A stretch of DNA of 64,000 nt. Origin: Myxococcales bacterium. Lineage in GTDB: Bacteria; Myxococcota_A; Polyangia; Palsa-1104; JAEUJZ01. The position numbers were made by a program, and so were the translations under genes. Under the pieces are notes generated by a model. The model worked only from the letters and a program-made list of their open reading frames with translations. It was not told the origin of the DNA and ran no database searches. Below, piece by piece: positions 33,652 through 37,225 of this stretch. Every line of letters starts with the position of its first letter. Position 1 is the stretch's first letter. Location of the stretch: NCBI GenBank assembly GCA_016794365.1, contig JAEUKB010000025.1, positions 180,693-244,692 on the forward strand. Reading direction: 5' to 3'.

Positions 33652-35319
33652 TCAGCCGCCACCGGCGCAGCGGAAGTTGACGACCTTGCCTGGAGGCGGC
33701 TGGTTGCCACCCTTGCGCCACACGCCTGCAACGACGGTATCGGTGCAGATGTTGGGGTCTTTGCTCTTCACTGCGCAGTAGCAGTCACGCGCTTCGGCGC
33801 TGCAAGCCATCTTGATCGACTCGTCGCCTGGGGTCGGGCTGCTCGTCGTTGCCCATGCGTTGCAGCAGTTGTTCGAGCAGACCGGGAAGGCCGTCTCTGG
33901 ATCGGGCGAGCTGGCTGGCGACGCTTCATCGACATCGCCGACGAGGCAGATCGGGTGTCCGGCGGCATCGTTCTTCGGCGTCACAGGCAAGCACTGCGCT
34001 TGGAGACGCTGCTCGATGGCCTTCGCGATGCGATCGAGGGCCGTCGGGTAGTTGTCAATGTCACAGATCGAGACTTCCAGAGCGTTTGGCTGACCCTTGG
34101 CATCGTTTCCGAACTGCTTGGCAAACTTCGACAGACGGAGCTGCGCTTGGCCGTAGACGCTCTGATCGCTGGCGTACACGCACGAAGCACCCGCGCCGCC
34201 CGCTCGGTTGAGGTTCGGGGTGGTGGTTCCACCGGCGCGAGCGATCTCGACCTTGCCGCCCGAGCTGATCGAGGGCAGCGTCCAGATGCCGCTCACGAGC
34301 AGCTTGTTCGACGGACGCAGGTTGCTAAAGAACCGATAGTACTTTTCGACCGGCTCTAGGTAGTTGTTCGCGCGCTCTTTGCAGGCGGTCTTGACACCGG
34401 TGGTGAGCGTCGTCTCGTTGCACTGGATCGAGCGAGCCAGGCAGCGGAAGTCAACATTGTAGCACTCGGGCGAGTCAGGCTGCGTCGGATCGCAGTCGCG
34501 GTAGCTCGGGTTGTTTTGATCGCGCTTGGCCATCTGAACCGAGCAGTCGTCTTCGTCGGTGATGAAGATGACCGCGAGCACGGAGTTGGCGCGCAGAAAG
34601 CCCGAGTTTTCGCTGCGGTGGCCATCGAGTGCGCGCTTGGCGCCTTCCATCTGACCTTCGATTCCGCAGCCGTCATCGCCGACCAGGGCCATACAGCGGA
34701 AGGCCTTGTTCGGACCGACATCGACCATCTTGCCGGTGACGGGATCTCGTTCCATCGACTGCGGCACGTTGGTGACGCCATCGACCTTCGAGATGAAGCG
34801 ACGACCGTCCGTCGGAACGAACTTGTCATCGGGGCACAGCTGCGCACAAGCGTTGCGCGCGTCCGGGGTCACGGTGTTGCGGGTGGTGCAAGGAACGGCT
34901 TGCAGCACGCCGTCGTCACCTTCGTAGCTATCGCACTTGCCGATGTTGCCGCCCCAGGGCACGCCGGGCTGGACGTTGCTGCCGATGTCGCTGGTGGCGA
35001 TACCGACGTGATAGTTGGCGCCGGTGTCATCGATCTTTTGGATGAACTTGGGAATGTTCGATGCGAGCGCCTTCTGCTTGGGCGACATCGACGGCGAGTT
35101 GTCGATCAAAAACAGGATATCGACGTCCTTGCGGAGCCGCGCATCGACGACGCTTTCGCCGAGCTGGCTGACGCACTTGCCGAACTCCTTCATCTTGGTC
35201 TTGGAGTCACCTGCCGTCGGCACCGGGCAGGTCGAGCCCACCTGCGGAGAGGTGCAGGCGGACAGCAGCAGGGCAGAGCCGAGCCCAGCGAGCGAGAGTG
35301 TGAGGTGGTTACGTCGCAT
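33652..35319 (-). CDS. vWA-domain, cysteine-rich secreted lipoprotein (paralog 1)
   Basis: Lipobox LLSAC. MIDAS DILFLIDNSPSMSPKQ; more than 25 Cys. 60-70% identical in blocks to the upstream paralog. GGAGG RBS. Confidence 0.7.
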   Translation of the reverse strand: MRRNHLTLSLAGLGSALLLSACTSPQVGSTCPVPTAGDSKTKMKEFGKCVSQLGESVVDARLRKDVDILFLIDNSPSMSPKQKALASNIPKFIQKIDDTGANYHVGIATSDIGSNVQPGVPWGGNIGKCDSYEGDDGVLQAVPCTTRNTVTPDARNACAQLCPDDKFVPTDGRRFISKVDGVTNVPQSMERDPVTGKMVDVGPNKAFRCMALVGDDGCGIEGQMEGAKRALDGHRSENSGFLRANSVLAVIFITDEDDCSVQMAKRDQNNPSYRDCDPTQPDSPECYNVDFRCLARSIQCNETTLTTGVKTACKERANNYLEPVEKYYRFFSNLRPSNKLLVSGIWTLPSISSGGKVEIARAGGTTTPNLNRAGGAGASCVYASDQSVYGQAQLRLSKFAKQFGNDAKGQPNALEVSICDIDNYPTALDRIAKAIEQRLQAQCLPVTPKNDAAGHPICLVGDVDEASPASSPDPETAFPVCSNNCCNAWATTSSPTPGDESIKMACSAEARDCYCAVKSKDPNICTDTVVAGVWRKGGNQPPPGKVVNFRCAGGG

Positions 35320-35551
35320 CAAAGCCTCCGTACGAATTTCGACAGCATAGGACCGTGTGAGGTCGTAAGCGCACAGCGGCACCGTATCTCAGTTGCGGGG
35401 CGAGGGCAAGCCACAGTAGCCGCTATGGACCTACTTGCTTGCTTAGGTGCAAAAGGAGCCACGGACCTTACGGTCCAGGACTCACTTTTTCAATTTCACT
35501 TGGGGTTGCGAAGGCGGATGGGCAGGCAGCGAGCGGAGCGAATCGACTGGG

Positions 35552-37225
35552 TTAGTAGCCGACGCAGCGGAAGTTTACGACCTTGCCAGCGGGCGGGTTG
35601 GCGTTGTTCTTGCGCCACACGCCGGTCACGACGCCGCCACTAACGCCGCCTTCGGGTGTACCGGCCTTGCAGACGTTCGGATCTTTGCTCTTGATGGCGC
35701 AGTAGCAAGCGTCGGTGGTTTCACCGGCACAAGCGGCCTGGATGCCCTTGTCGGCCAGAGATGGCGTCGAAGTGCTGGCCCACGCATCGCAGCAGCTCGT
35801 CGAGCAGGTCGGGAAGTACTTTTCGGGCACCGCTTCAGGCGTCGAGGCGTCTACGTCTCCGACCAGGCAGATCGGCTGACCGTTGACGGTCTTTAGCGTG
35901 ATCGGCAAGCACGGCACCAGCTTCTTTTCGAGCGTCTTGGCGATGGTGTCGAGCGCCGCCGGATAGTTCGCGGTATCGCAGACATTGAGCTGCGGAGCGT
36001 TGGCGATGCCGTCGTTGTCTTTGCCAAACAGGTTCGCGAGCTGCGACATGCGGAACTGCGGCTGACCCACGACCGCGCTGTTCATTGCGTTGACGCAAGC
36101 GGGCTCTCGACGCAGATCCGAGGTGAGCGGTCCGCCGATGATGCCAACGGTGCCGCCACTGGTTGCGCCTGTATCGACGTTCGGAAGCGTCCAGATGCCG
36201 CTGACGAGCAGCTTGTCCGCCGAGCGAACCTTGAGCAGCGCGTCGTAATAGGTCTTTACAGGCTCGAGGAAGTTGTCGGTTCGCTCTTTGCAGCCGGTCT
36301 TGTTGCCCGCCGTCGTCATCGGCTCGTTGCAGGTGAGCGATCGCGCCATGCAGCGATAGTCCACCTTGTAGCAGTCGTACGAGTCGGGCTGCGCGGCATT
36401 GCAGTTGCGGTAGCCGGGGTTTAGCTCCGAGCGGCGCGAGGTCTTCACCGAGCAGTCGTCTTCGTCAGTGATGAAGATGACCGCAAGCACCGAGTTGTCC
36501 CGAATGAAGCCGCTGTTGGCCGAGTTGCTGATCGCGCGCTTGACGGCCTCGAGTGGACCTTCGACACCGCAGCCCGCATCACCGACGAGTGCCATGCACT
36601 TGAAGGCGTTGGTGGGACCGTAGTCCACCATCTGTCCCGTCATCGGGTCCAGCTTGAGATCCGACGGGACGTTGGTCTTGCCATCGATCTTCGAGATGTA
36701 CTTGGTGCCGTCGGTGGGCTTGAAGCGATTGTCAGGACACAGGGTCGCGCAAGCGTTGCTGGCTTCGGGAGAGACGGTGTTGCGCTTGTCGCAGGTGATG
36801 TCTTGCAGTCGTCCGTCATCACCGCTGAAGGTGTCGCACGATGGCTCTGAGCCCGCGCCCCACGTCGCACCGTCCGAGACGGTGGTTCCGACATCGGTGG
36901 TGACGATGCCAACGTGATAGTTCACGCCGAAGCTGTCGATCTTCTGGATGAACTTGGGAATGTTTTCAGCCAGCGCCTTCTGCTTGGGCGACATCGACGG
37001 TGAGTTGTCGATGACAAAGAGGATGTCCACATCCTTTTTCAATCGGAAGTCGTTGTGGTTCCCCGCGATCAGGCCGAAGCACTTCTGAACGGCTTCCTGG
37101 CGGGTTTTGGCGTCAGCGTTGGTCGGAATCGGACACGGGCTTCCTACCTGTGGCGCTGTGCACGCGCCGACCGTCAGGCTTAGCAGTGCCCCGGTCAACG
37201 TACGCGTGAGAAGTGGACGGCTCAT
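35552..37225 (-). CDS. vWA-domain, cysteine-rich secreted lipoprotein (paralog 2)
   Basis: Lipobox LTVGAC. MIDAS DILFVIDNSPSMSPKQ; same architecture as 33652-35319. GGGAGG RBS. Confidence 0.7.
   Translation of the reverse strand: MSRPLLTRTLTGALLSLTVGACTAPQVGSPCPIPTNADAKTRQEAVQKCFGLIAGNHNDFRLKKDVDILFVIDNSPSMSPKQKALAENIPKFIQKIDSFGVNYHVGIVTTDVGTTVSDGATWGAGSEPSCDTFSGDDGRLQDITCDKRNTVSPEASNACATLCPDNRFKPTDGTKYISKIDGKTNVPSDLKLDPMTGQMVDYGPTNAFKCMALVGDAGCGVEGPLEAVKRAISNSANSGFIRDNSVLAVIFITDEDDCSVKTSRRSELNPGYRNCNAAQPDSYDCYKVDYRCMARSLTCNEPMTTAGNKTGCKERTDNFLEPVKTYYDALLKVRSADKLLVSGIWTLPNVDTGATSGGTVGIIGGPLTSDLRREPACVNAMNSAVVGQPQFRMSQLANLFGKDNDGIANAPQLNVCDTANYPAALDTIAKTLEKKLVPCLPITLKTVNGQPICLVGDVDASTPEAVPEKYFPTCSTSCCDAWASTSTPSLADKGIQAACAGETTDACYCAIKSKDPNVCKAGTPEGGVSGGVVTGVWRKNNANPPAGKVVNFRCVGY

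Follow-up and report, generated by a model that had tools for sequence, protein, structure and literature searches.

The window, a stretch of 64,000 nucleotides from a Myxococcales bacterium, carries two adjacent genes for Cys-rich vWA lipoproteins, vwa2 and vwa1, and these are located upstream of a gene for an MVP homologue. The genes of this region, including the neighbour on the other side of vwa2, are as follows.

30548-33454, minus strand: MVP homologue of 968 aa from the ATG (970-aa open reading frame to 33460), with Pfam MVP_shoulder (1e-18), Vault_3 and Vault_4; context gene
33652-35319, minus strand: vwa1, a 555-aa Cys-rich vWA/MIDAS lipoprotein, orthologous to a widespread single-copy family
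35552-37225, minus strand: vwa2, a 557-aa Cys-rich vWA/MIDAS lipoprotein, the divergent copy of the pair
37795-39873, plus strand: TonB-dependent-receptor-like outer-membrane barrel, with Pfam TonB_dep_Rec_b-barrel (8e-8); context gene

Both vWA reading frames are located on the minus strand where the original prediction had placed them, and its view of them as tandem paralogues is borne out by an identity of 55% across the full length of the two proteins (609 bits). In the mechanical list of open reading frames vwa1 is longer and begins with a GTG at 35382; the start supported by homologues is the ATG at 35319, which has GGAGG 5 nt upstream and to which the N-termini of all homologues align. 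The predicted gap of 197 bp between vwa1 and MVP stands when it is measured to the MVP ATG at 33454. The predicted gap of 170 bp between vwa2 and vwa1 holds only for the GTG-extended frame and becomes 232 bp with the supported ATG.

Clustered at 50% identity, the family to which these proteins belong counts about 5,700 representatives at E <= 1e-10, and it is essentially without Pfam coverage. A literature search for a Cys-rich vWA lipoprotein family described in Polyangia returned nothing relevant, and no defence-system match was given by PADLOC for the vWA proteins or MVP. Distant homologues are consistently nearer to vwa1 (53-67% identity) than to vwa2 (47-53%). The two genes would be old tandem paralogues of this large lipoprotein family, which occurs mainly in Polyangia/Myxococcota; vwa1 may represent the ancestral copy and vwa2 the divergent duplicate.

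Export signals, cysteines and the vWA domain

The signal peptides and metal-site motifs of both proteins were placed at the following positions.

35089-35103, minus strand: vwa1 MIDAS DxSxS (D73-N-S75-P-S77), from sequence comparison and a local match to NF052240
35254-35319, minus strand: vwa1 signal peptide and lipobox (MRRNHLTLSLAGLGSALLLSAC, Cys22, +2 = Thr), read directly from the sequence
36995-37009, minus strand: vwa2 MIDAS DxSxS (D73-N-S75-P-S77), from conservation and a local match to NCBIfam NF052240 (7.6e-15)
37160-37225, minus strand: vwa2 signal peptide and lipobox (MSRPLLTRTLTGALLSLTVGAC, Cys22, +2 = Thr), read directly from the sequence

Both signal peptides end in a lipobox (LLSAC and TVGAC) with Cys22 as the lipid-anchor Cys. 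A sequence pattern test, which looked for a positively charged n-region, a hydrophobic h-region and a lipobox ([LVI][ASTVIG][GAS]C, roughly 15-35 residues from the start), recognised both of them as lipoprotein signals (MRRNHLTLSLAGLGSALLLSA and MSRPLLTRTLTGALLSLTVGA, each followed directly by the Cys). Of the 115 full-length family members, 104 have a lipobox. The +2 residue is Thr in vwa1 and vwa2 and mostly T, A or S across the family. Lys at +2 retains lipoproteins in the inner membrane of M. xanthus; as no known inner-membrane retention residue is found at +2, vwa1 and vwa2 are probably sorted to the outer membrane.

Each protein has exactly 27 Cys (4.8-4.9%), as compared to 1.4% in the long open reading frames of the window. 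The median of the 115 full-length family members is also 27 Cys, and the count is odd in 79% of them, which corresponds to one lipid-anchor Cys and an even number of others. The 26 non-lipobox Cys point to an oxidising, extracytoplasmic location of vwa1 and vwa2, and, judging from these sequence features, the proteins are probably located in the outer membrane or at the surface and probably contain disulfides. They would be exported by a Sec/Lsp-type lipoprotein signal peptide and lipidated on Cys22, and the remaining 26 Cys may form about 13 disulfides which lock the vWA domain and a C-terminal beta domain. The MVP homologue has no signal peptide and only 6 Cys (0.6%), so the separation made earlier between exported Cys-rich lipoproteins and a cytoplasmic MVP is upheld.

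The MIDAS stretch DILF[LV]IDNSPSMSPKQKALA.NIPKFIQKID is present in both proteins; the lipobox, the MIDAS stretch and the more than 25 Cys which had been predicted for each of them are therefore all found. D73, S75 and S77 are kept in at least 90% of the aligned sequences and DxSxS in 104 of the 115 family members. An invariant D254 (T253-D-E-D-D) comes after strand 246-253, and its modelled position is consistent with the beta4 Asp of a MIDAS. The Pfam VWA threshold (PF00092, 23.8 bits) is not reached by vwa2 (15.5 bits, E 0.02, covering the first 44 model positions only) and vwa1 gives no match, the sequence profile being interrupted by a large insertion. When PDB sequences were searched with a profile of the family, nothing meaningful was returned (LpqE, E 0.89, in the signal-peptide region only).

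The AF2 model of the vWA lipoprotein (pLDDT 81.4, pTM 0.78) has the Rossmann-like alpha/beta fold of the vWA superfamily, and Foldseek matches it best to integrin beta-I domains and to SpaC, PitA and GBS104, which are pilus-tip adhesins. Along with the DxSxS motif, this agrees with the vWA fold and MIDAS proposed at first. In the proposed architecture, strands beta2 and beta4 of an integrin-beta-I-like vWA domain would be separated by a Cys-rich insert of about 135 residues, and a small beta domain would be present at the C-terminus. The MIDAS (D73-x-S75-x-S77 and D254) would hold a divalent cation whose coordination is completed by an acidic group of the ligand.

The majority of outer-membrane lipoproteins face the periplasm, and 5 of 31 family members weakly match BatB-type vWA models (E 0.039); vwa1 and vwa2 might on these grounds be periplasm-facing envelope proteins of a structural or stress-related kind (Bat-like vWA or metal-sequestering) rather than surface adhesins. 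We consider this unlikely, as the BatB matches are far under threshold, the closest structures found are insertion-bearing vWA domains from adhesins that bind ligands, and the nearest characterised analogues CglB, CglD and Bd0875 are surface-exposed (PMC9946355; bioRxiv 10.1101/2023.10.19.562135; PMC11003981).

CglD, which serves adventurous gliding in Myxococcus xanthus, is, like vwa1 and vwa2, a myxobacterial Cys-rich lipoprotein (4.1% Cys) with many predicted disulfides and has a C-terminal integrin beta-I-type vWA module (aa 644-1111) with a DxSxS MIDAS. Integrin beta3 3FCS_B, the HHpred template for CglD (bioRxiv 10.1101/2023.10.19.562135), is also a Foldseek match here, and the CglD model is matched by distant members of the family in its beta-I region only (positions 634-852; E 2e-8; 17-32 bits). 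CglD differs in its length of 1130 aa and in its N-terminal COMP-like Ca-binding and EGF-like modules, which are absent from vwa1 and vwa2. The CglD model NF033765 (cut-off 400 bits) gave no match to vwa1 or vwa2 at E <= 0.1, and among 31 aligned family members it matched one (E 0.0017).

CglB, the gliding adhesin of M. xanthus and an outer-membrane lipoprotein, shares with the pair a lipobox Cys near residue 20 and a DxSxS about 35-50 residues later, and it has a disulfide-stabilised vWA domain (17 Cys in 416 aa) and an extra small beta domain (PMC9946355). Going by its published description only, CglB has 416 aa, its vWA domain is alpha-I-like and a beta-jellyroll stands at the N-terminus (PMC9946355); vwa1 and vwa2 have about 555 aa and combine a beta-I-like vWA domain, which carries a large Cys-rich insert, with a beta domain at the C-terminus. 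The cglB gene co-occurs with the Agl-Glt machinery; no Agl-Glt gene link was seen in the region of the window which was examined.

Bd0875 of Bdellovibrio bacteriovorus is a lipoprotein with a lipobox within aa 1-22, a vWA/MIDAS domain and a small beta-rich domain, and its function requires the MIDAS (PMC11003981). The MIDAS segment of NF052240 (MIDAS family adhesin) is matched by all 31 of the 31 aligned family members, with E values down to 7.6e-15; the two scores of the pair (43.9 and 54.9 bits, model positions 55-107 of 378) are below the cut-off of 700 bits. Bd0875 has 378 aa as against 555 aa and a different Cys-rich architecture, and it belongs to a separate family. By analogy with these characterised proteins an adhesin function of vwa1 and vwa2 is most likely, and in the cell envelope they would serve as adhesins or ligand receptors that depend on a metal, comparable to CglB and CglD in Myxococcus gliding and Bd0875 in Bdellovibrio prey entry.

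Sequence elements between the genes

The gaps on both sides of vwa1 contain the following elements.

33499-33528, minus strand: sigma-70-like MVP promoter candidate CTTGCA-N18-GATGAT, about 45 nt upstream of the MVP ATG, from conservation
33616-33634, minus strand: weak hairpin (AAGCGGCU...GGCCGCUU), 17 nt after the vwa1 stop and without a U-tract, from folding
35320-35441, minus strand: conserved leader of about 120 nt, from the promoter-like element to the vwa1 start, from an alignment of a five-member clade
35442-35471, minus strand: promoter-like element GTAAGGT-N17-CCTAAG, 152 nt upstream of the vwa1 ATG, from family-wide conservation
35456-35483, minus strand: stable hairpin, loop GTAA, with UUUU after it and an overlap with the GTAAGGT motif, from folding and comparison

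The vwa1 motif occurs in the family form GTAAGGT-N17-CTAnnn upstream of orthologues in unrelated contexts. In 10 distant loci, independent of one another, its GTAAGGT core precedes a vwa1-type gene by 78-202 nt, for an expectation of about 0.005 per 320 nt, and these loci include cases with a divergent upstream gene. The element occurs once in the window and is absent upstream of the vwa2 copies. The leader which follows it is nearly invariant in the five clade members, more so than the flanking coding ends; a scan of 30000-38000 against Rfam gave no RNA family, so no riboswitch or leader already known matches it.

Folding of 35440-35500 on the minus strand gave a dG of -22.9 kcal/mol (z = -4.3), and the stem at 35456-35483 is kept in one relative (L069) by compensatory changes (GAAACC/GGTTTC). 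This hairpin may be the intrinsic terminator of vwa2 or a palindromic form which the motif takes in the clade. A role purely as vwa2 terminator was dropped as the sole reading, because the GTAAGGT core is also found upstream of orthologues having a divergent upstream neighbour.

Upstream of MVP, the form TTGACC/CTTGC[AG]-N18-GA[TA][GA]AT is found in L005, L006, L007, L010, L011, L033, L040, L056, L062, L068, L069 and L076, and it persists even where another gene, or a divergent one, lies upstream. Folding of the 66-nt segment with the hairpin after vwa1 gave no significant result (dG -14.4, z = -0.27), and L010 alone retains this hairpin, with one compensatory pair. A strict scan of 30000-38000 for the sigma-70 consensus and for terminators gave no promoters, and terminator-like sites inside genes only; the promoter reading of both motifs consequently comes from comparative conservation, and they are regarded as candidate promoters.

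The expectation of a single vwa2-vwa1-MVP transcription unit is not supported, since the order is unconserved and promoter-like elements are present in both gaps. These conserved elements appear to travel with vwa1 and MVP respectively, as would be expected of the independent promoters that had been named as evidence against the linkage. Some read-through from vwa2 through vwa1 into MVP may take place, the hairpin after vwa1 being weak and without a U-tract. In the arrangement proposed here, vwa1 would be transcribed from its own family-specific promoter, vwa2 would have its own divergent promoter region, and MVP would be a separately promoted gene for a cytoplasmic protein.

Gene order in other genomes and its meaning

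Pairs of a surface lipoprotein and an outer-membrane barrel are a common design. The TonB-like barrel gene is divergent from vwa2 across 569 bp and is found in this position in L001, L005, L006, L075, L076 and L078, and in L002 a 63%-identical barrel orthologue is located 7 kb from the vwa1 orthologue. The lipoproteins and the barrel might form a surface ligand-capture/outer-membrane transporter pair, comparable to TbpB/TbpA, SusD/SusC or CglB/GltABH-type adhesin loading. This appears rather unlikely: the barrel adjoins vwa2 in the close clade only, seven unrelated genes separate it from the vWA gene in L002, and neighbour clustering finds it at only 4 of 85 vWA loci, the neighbours of other members being unrelated (DsbA, OmpA, ABC transporter, SelA, kinases, sigma-54 activators). 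The Plug domain was also not detected in the barrel protein by a Pfam scan.

In the search for MVP, 302 homologues were found, mostly in Polyangia. Among 56 species-level MVP loci with enough upstream DNA, a vWA homologue is present within 10 kb at only 4, all from close relatives of the window whose MVP is at least 84% identical to that of the window, and at one of these 4 the vWA pair is set apart from MVP by five genes on the opposite strand. The order vwa2-vwa1-MVP is kept in the close relatives L001, L005, L006, L010, L073, L076 and L086; the close relatives L007 and L068 are without the linkage, and in L069 and L075/L078 five opposite-strand genes intervene between the vWA pair and MVP. 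No MVP was found near vWA homologues of 67% identity or less, and in the MAGs SKYG55 and STL-MYX5 the two genes are on different contigs. When the neighbours of 85 vWA loci and 65 MVP loci were clustered, no partner proved to be conserved; Ser/Thr kinases and sigma-54 activators recurred and were discounted as members of very abundant myxobacterial families. The adjacency is therefore not conserved across the lineages of MVP-encoding bacteria, and a functional linkage of vWA and MVP is not borne out.

The lipoproteins could be seen as accessory parts of a bacterial vault-like particle, that is, as VPARP analogues co-transcribed with MVP. This draws on the co-orientation of the three genes across short gaps, the order kept in close relatives, a vwa1-MVP gap in which no canonical terminator was detected, and the MVP-associated VPARP (PARP4) itself, one of whose domains is vWA (PMC7916137). 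VPARP, however, binds MVP through its C-terminal INT domain and not through vWA (PMC7916137), and it is a cytoplasmic protein of 1724 aa with BRCT, PARP catalytic, VIT, vWA and INT domains, whereas vwa1 and vwa2 are predicted exported lipoproteins with the vWA fold only. Pfam and NCBIfam scans of both found no INT, PARP, BRCT or VIT domain, and the analogy, which the original prediction had found intriguing, fails. The 26 extra Cys of the lipoproteins against a cytoplasmic MVP, the rarity of the linkage and the separate promoter-like elements at vwa1 and MVP also speak against it, and the vault-partner reading is largely refuted and very improbable.

It has been speculated in print that gliding is common to all bacteria with MVP (bioRxiv 10.1101/872010), and the lipoproteins resemble CglB and CglD; on these grounds the lipoproteins and MVP might be coupled in function within one genus-level Polyangia clade, for example in a shared surface motility or adhesion role. 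We give this coupling only a very slight chance; if true, the retained vwa2-vwa1-MVP-EF-hand order would be co-regulation and not mere synteny. The reading we hold to be probable is that vwa1 and vwa2 are adhesin-like lipoproteins, that vwa1 and MVP have their own promoters, and that the adjacency to MVP is synteny without functional meaning, a local and lineage-specific accident of gene order.

At first this locus attracted interest as a possible entry point to the partners of bacterial vaults, a prospect which the comparative data remove; as bacterial MVP genes are without any conserved neighbour, partners of the vault in Polyangia will not come to light through genomic context. The pair instead represents a large family of integrin-beta-I-like lipoproteins, predicted to be disulfide-locked, which would be structural kin of the gliding and predation adhesins CglB, CglD and Bd0875. 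The GTAAGGT motif marks the vwa1-type orthologues of this family and could be used to define a regulon or to identify the responsible sigma factor or regulator.

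Two tandem lipoproteins with a vWA fold

The genes vwa2, vwa1 and the homologue of the eukaryotic major vault protein (MVP) are three large consecutive ORFs, all on the minus strand, with the vWA pair at the place where the original prediction had put it:

35552-37225, minus strand: vwa2, ORF of 557 aa
33652-35319, minus strand: vwa1, ORF of 555 aa from the ATG
30548-33454, minus strand: MVP homologue, 968 aa counted from the ATG

In the mechanical ORF list the start of vwa1 was placed further out, at the GTG of 35382. The ATG at 35319 is preceded by GGAGG five bases upstream and all homologues begin at the equivalent M-[SR]-R in the alignment, so the vwa2-vwa1 gap is taken as 232 bp and not as the 170 bp first given; the vwa1-MVP gap of 197 bp stands. 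The MVP assignment is sound on its Pfam matches (MVP_shoulder at 1e-18, plus Vault_3 and Vault_4).

The annotation of the pair as tandem paralogous, Cys-rich vWA lipoproteins with a MIDAS motif was right. The two proteins are 55% identical across their entire length, and both carry a basic n-region and a hydrophobic core followed by a lipobox (LLSA↓C and TVGA↓C, with the lipidation site at Cys22), the MIDAS stretch D73-x-S75-x-S77 and exactly 27 Cys, where more than 25 had been claimed; this is 4.8-4.9% Cys, compared with 1.4% for the window's long ORFs.

By sequence profiles the two proteins are barely recognised. A Pfam VWA match was obtained for vwa2 alone and was sub-threshold (15.5 bits, below the cut-off of 23.8, covering the first 44 model positions only), the NCBIfam model of the Bdellovibrio 'MIDAS family adhesin' was matched locally, in its MIDAS segment (44-55 bits vs a cut-off of 700), and nothing was found by profile search of PDB sequences. 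It is the predicted structure that settles the vWA fold. An alignment of 31 sequences was used for the AlphaFold2 model (pLDDT 81.4, pTM 0.78). Its Foldseek comparison put integrin beta-I domains at the top along with SpaC, PitA and GBS104, pilus-tip adhesins of Gram-positive bacteria, all of them ligand-binding vWA domains bearing insertions. The modelled vWA core spans approximately residues 65 to 440, and within it strands 102-109 and 246-253 are separated by a Cys-rich insertion of some 135 residues; the second of these strands terminates in the invariant T-D254-E-D-D of the alignment, and a Cys-rich beta domain forms the C-terminus after the core.

Conservation of the vWA-MVP adjacency

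The adjacency was checked from both sides in other MVP-encoding bacteria and was not conserved. For the MVP side, an alignment of 14 bacterial MVPs was used to collect 65 loci from species-representative genomes, spanning Polyangium, Minicystis, Byssovorax, Nannocystaceae, Planctomycetota and Thermoanaerobaculia, which were queried by tblastn with vwa1 and vwa2. Matches were confined to L005, L006, L010 and L069. With the count limited to loci in which the MVP N-terminus is present and preceded by 1.8 kb or more of upstream DNA, this is 4 out of 56; the MVPs of these four are at least 84% identical to that of the window, which makes them one close clade. Inside the same clade the vWA gene is absent from L068 and from L007, which covers 8.4 kb upstream, and in L069 the vWA pair lies 5.6 kb from MVP, with five minus-strand genes intervening (DUF1287, an unknown gene, Amidase_2, SGL and HupE).

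From the vWA side, contigs with vWA homologues of 45-57% identity had no MVP neighbour, and in a further set of 80 vWA loci from metagenomes MVP was confined to those with a vwa1 of at least 90% identity (L073, L076, L086). Two MAGs hold both genes on different contigs, SKYG55 on contigs 105 (vWA) and 113 (MVP) and STL-MYX5 on contigs 8 and 2. All-against-all clustering of neighbouring ORFs gave no conserved MVP neighbour across the 65 species-level loci; neighbours were in common only inside groups of genus level, of which Polyangium is an example. The vWA-MVP adjacency is a matter of local synteny, and the functional linkage that had been proposed is not supported.

The parallel drawn with VPARP, the vWA-bearing minor vault protein, does not hold either. 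VPARP is a cytoplasmic BRCT-PARP-VIT-vWA-INT protein which docks to MVP via its C-terminal INT domain, the vWA domain being also present (PMC7916137). The likeness of vwa1 and vwa2 to it is the vWA domain, a very common fold; Pfam and NCBIfam scans found no BRCT, PARP, VIT or INT domain in them, and they are lipoproteins whereas VPARP is cytoplasmic. The window MVP, with 6 Cys (0.6%) and no signal peptide, is a cytoplasmic protein, and vwa1 and vwa2, with 13 probable disulfides each, cannot fold in that compartment.

Some other features of the MVP loci were recorded. A four-EF-hand protein of 188 aa (window 29978-30544, plus strand) is convergent with MVP with a stop-to-stop gap of 3 nt, and the 5′ end of its gene overlaps a listed adenylate-cyclase ORF (28496-30175, minus strand); like the vWA pair, its adjacency to MVP is limited to the close clade (L001, L005, L006, L010, L073, L086). 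MAGs of Planctomycetota and Thermoanaerobaculia also encode MVP homologues, with an identity of about 60%. The window MVP is intact; in relatives the gene is interrupted at the same codon, at about residue 506-511. The insert in L062 (11563-15295) is 3.7 kb long and contains ORFs for a tyrosine recombinase (Phage_integrase, 1e-25) and for an M49-like peptidase; residues 506-511 are found on either side of it. In L068 and L069 (about 11542) the MVP match stops at residue 511-512 and the C-terminal part is absent from the next 7-10 kb, and L076 has the same interruption point at a contig end. This suggests a site-specific integrative element using the MVP ORF as attachment site.

Upstream elements and transcription

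The following elements were located between the three genes:

35442-35471, minus strand: bipartite motif upstream of vwa1, here GTAAGGT-N17-CCTAAG, in its general form (c)tGTAAGGT(ttg)-N17-CTAgta
35320-35441, minus strand: 5′ leader of vwa1, about 120 nt, nearly invariant in five clade species
33499-33528, minus strand: TTGACC/CTTGC[AG]-N18-GA[TA][GA]AT, about 45 nt before the MVP ATG

The GTAAGGT core, usually as CTGTAAGGTTTG, was found 78-202 nt upstream of vwa1-type start codons in ten independent distant loci whose genomic contexts are unrelated (L002, L004, L070-L072, L082, L083, L087, L091, L093), with a CTAgta-like element 17 nt downstream, where about 0.005 occurrences per 320 nt are expected; it occurs once in the window. 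In the window clade the motif is embedded in a stable GTAA-loop hairpin (35456-35483; -22.9 kcal/mol for a 61-nt segment, z = -4.3) followed by UUUU, with GTAAGGT in the loop and 3′ arm. In L004, L071 and L072 the gene upstream of vWA is on the opposite strand, so the motif is no terminator there and would thus be part of the promoter region of the family, where a dedicated sigma factor or regulator probably binds it. The vwa2 copies, which form a long-branch clade, lack it upstream, and vwa1 is always closer to the outgroups; this distribution fits vwa1 as the putative ancestral orthologue. The vwa1 leader, which has no Rfam match, is more conserved than the adjacent coding ends and may be a structured leader or regulatory region.

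The MVP element is kept in a dozen loci, some with an unrelated or divergent upstream gene, and each of the three genes thus has its own conserved upstream element. Transcription of vwa2 must start within the 569-bp divergent region which it shares with a TonB-receptor-like gene. A strict sigma-70 scan of 30000-38000 found no promoter. The hairpin that follows vwa1 has no U-tract and falls short of significance (z = -0.27), and read-through across these genes, predicted as a possible single unit, is possible.

The vWA lipoprotein family and known adhesins

When 1.84 billion cluster representatives were searched with the family profile, 12,371 matched at E <= 1e-3, 5,698 at <= 1e-10 and 700 at <= 1e-30. 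Members that carry a name are called just 'hypothetical' or 'VWA domain-containing protein' and come from Polyangia or Myxococcales MAGs. Among 115 full-length homologues the lipobox and DxSxS are each present in 104, the median Cys count is 27 and the count is odd in 79%, an even number on top of the anchor Cys; 27 Cys positions are invariant in the family alignment. Both large and well conserved, the family has no curated coverage.

Tandem arrays of two or three copies are frequent in distant relatives too (25-35% identity; L105, L106, L111, L112, L116, L122, L128, L134, L135, L140, L151), so tandem duplication recurs in the superfamily and does not set the window apart. Two family members with an identity of about 45% (L004, L071) have a gene for a DUF4331 protein downstream, two genes away from vWA, and in L004 a DsbA gene is immediately adjacent; this may be an association specific to a sub-clade and of relevance to disulfide formation.

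The two proteins would be lipidated envelope proteins, probably of the outer membrane and possibly surface exposed; a periplasm-facing role is possible but less likely. The disulfide-locked, beta-I-like vWA domain would bind an acidic ligand via a divalent cation held by the MIDAS, which would make them adhesins or receptors. A partnership with the TonB-like barrel encoded beside vwa2 is also possible but less likely, and clustering of neighbouring ORFs found no conserved partner for the vWA family. For the adhesin or receptor role, three lipoproteins are the closest characterised analogues. CglD of M. xanthus is Cys-rich and located at the surface, matches integrin beta3 over aa 644-1111 and has the MIDAS residues D656, S658 and S660 (bioRxiv 10.1101/2023.10.19.562135); distant family members weakly match its beta-I region (model positions 634-852). 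CglB (416 aa, 17 Cys, lipobox C20, MIDAS D56, S58, S60; PMC9946355) shares the lipobox Cys and the DxSxS and has a disulfide-stabilised vWA domain, and B. bacteriovorus Bd0875, whose MIDAS is needed for prey invasion, is likewise a lipoprotein with a vWA domain and a small beta domain (PMC11003981). Neither vwa1 nor vwa2 reaches the cut-off of a curated family of CglD, CglB or Bd0875, and a similar function is given by inference only. By analogy, the pair are placed among the adhesins of vWA/MIDAS lipoprotein type that predatory or gliding Myxococcota and Bdellovibrionota have; what little is new lies in how large the family is and in the promoter-like motif that its members have in common.
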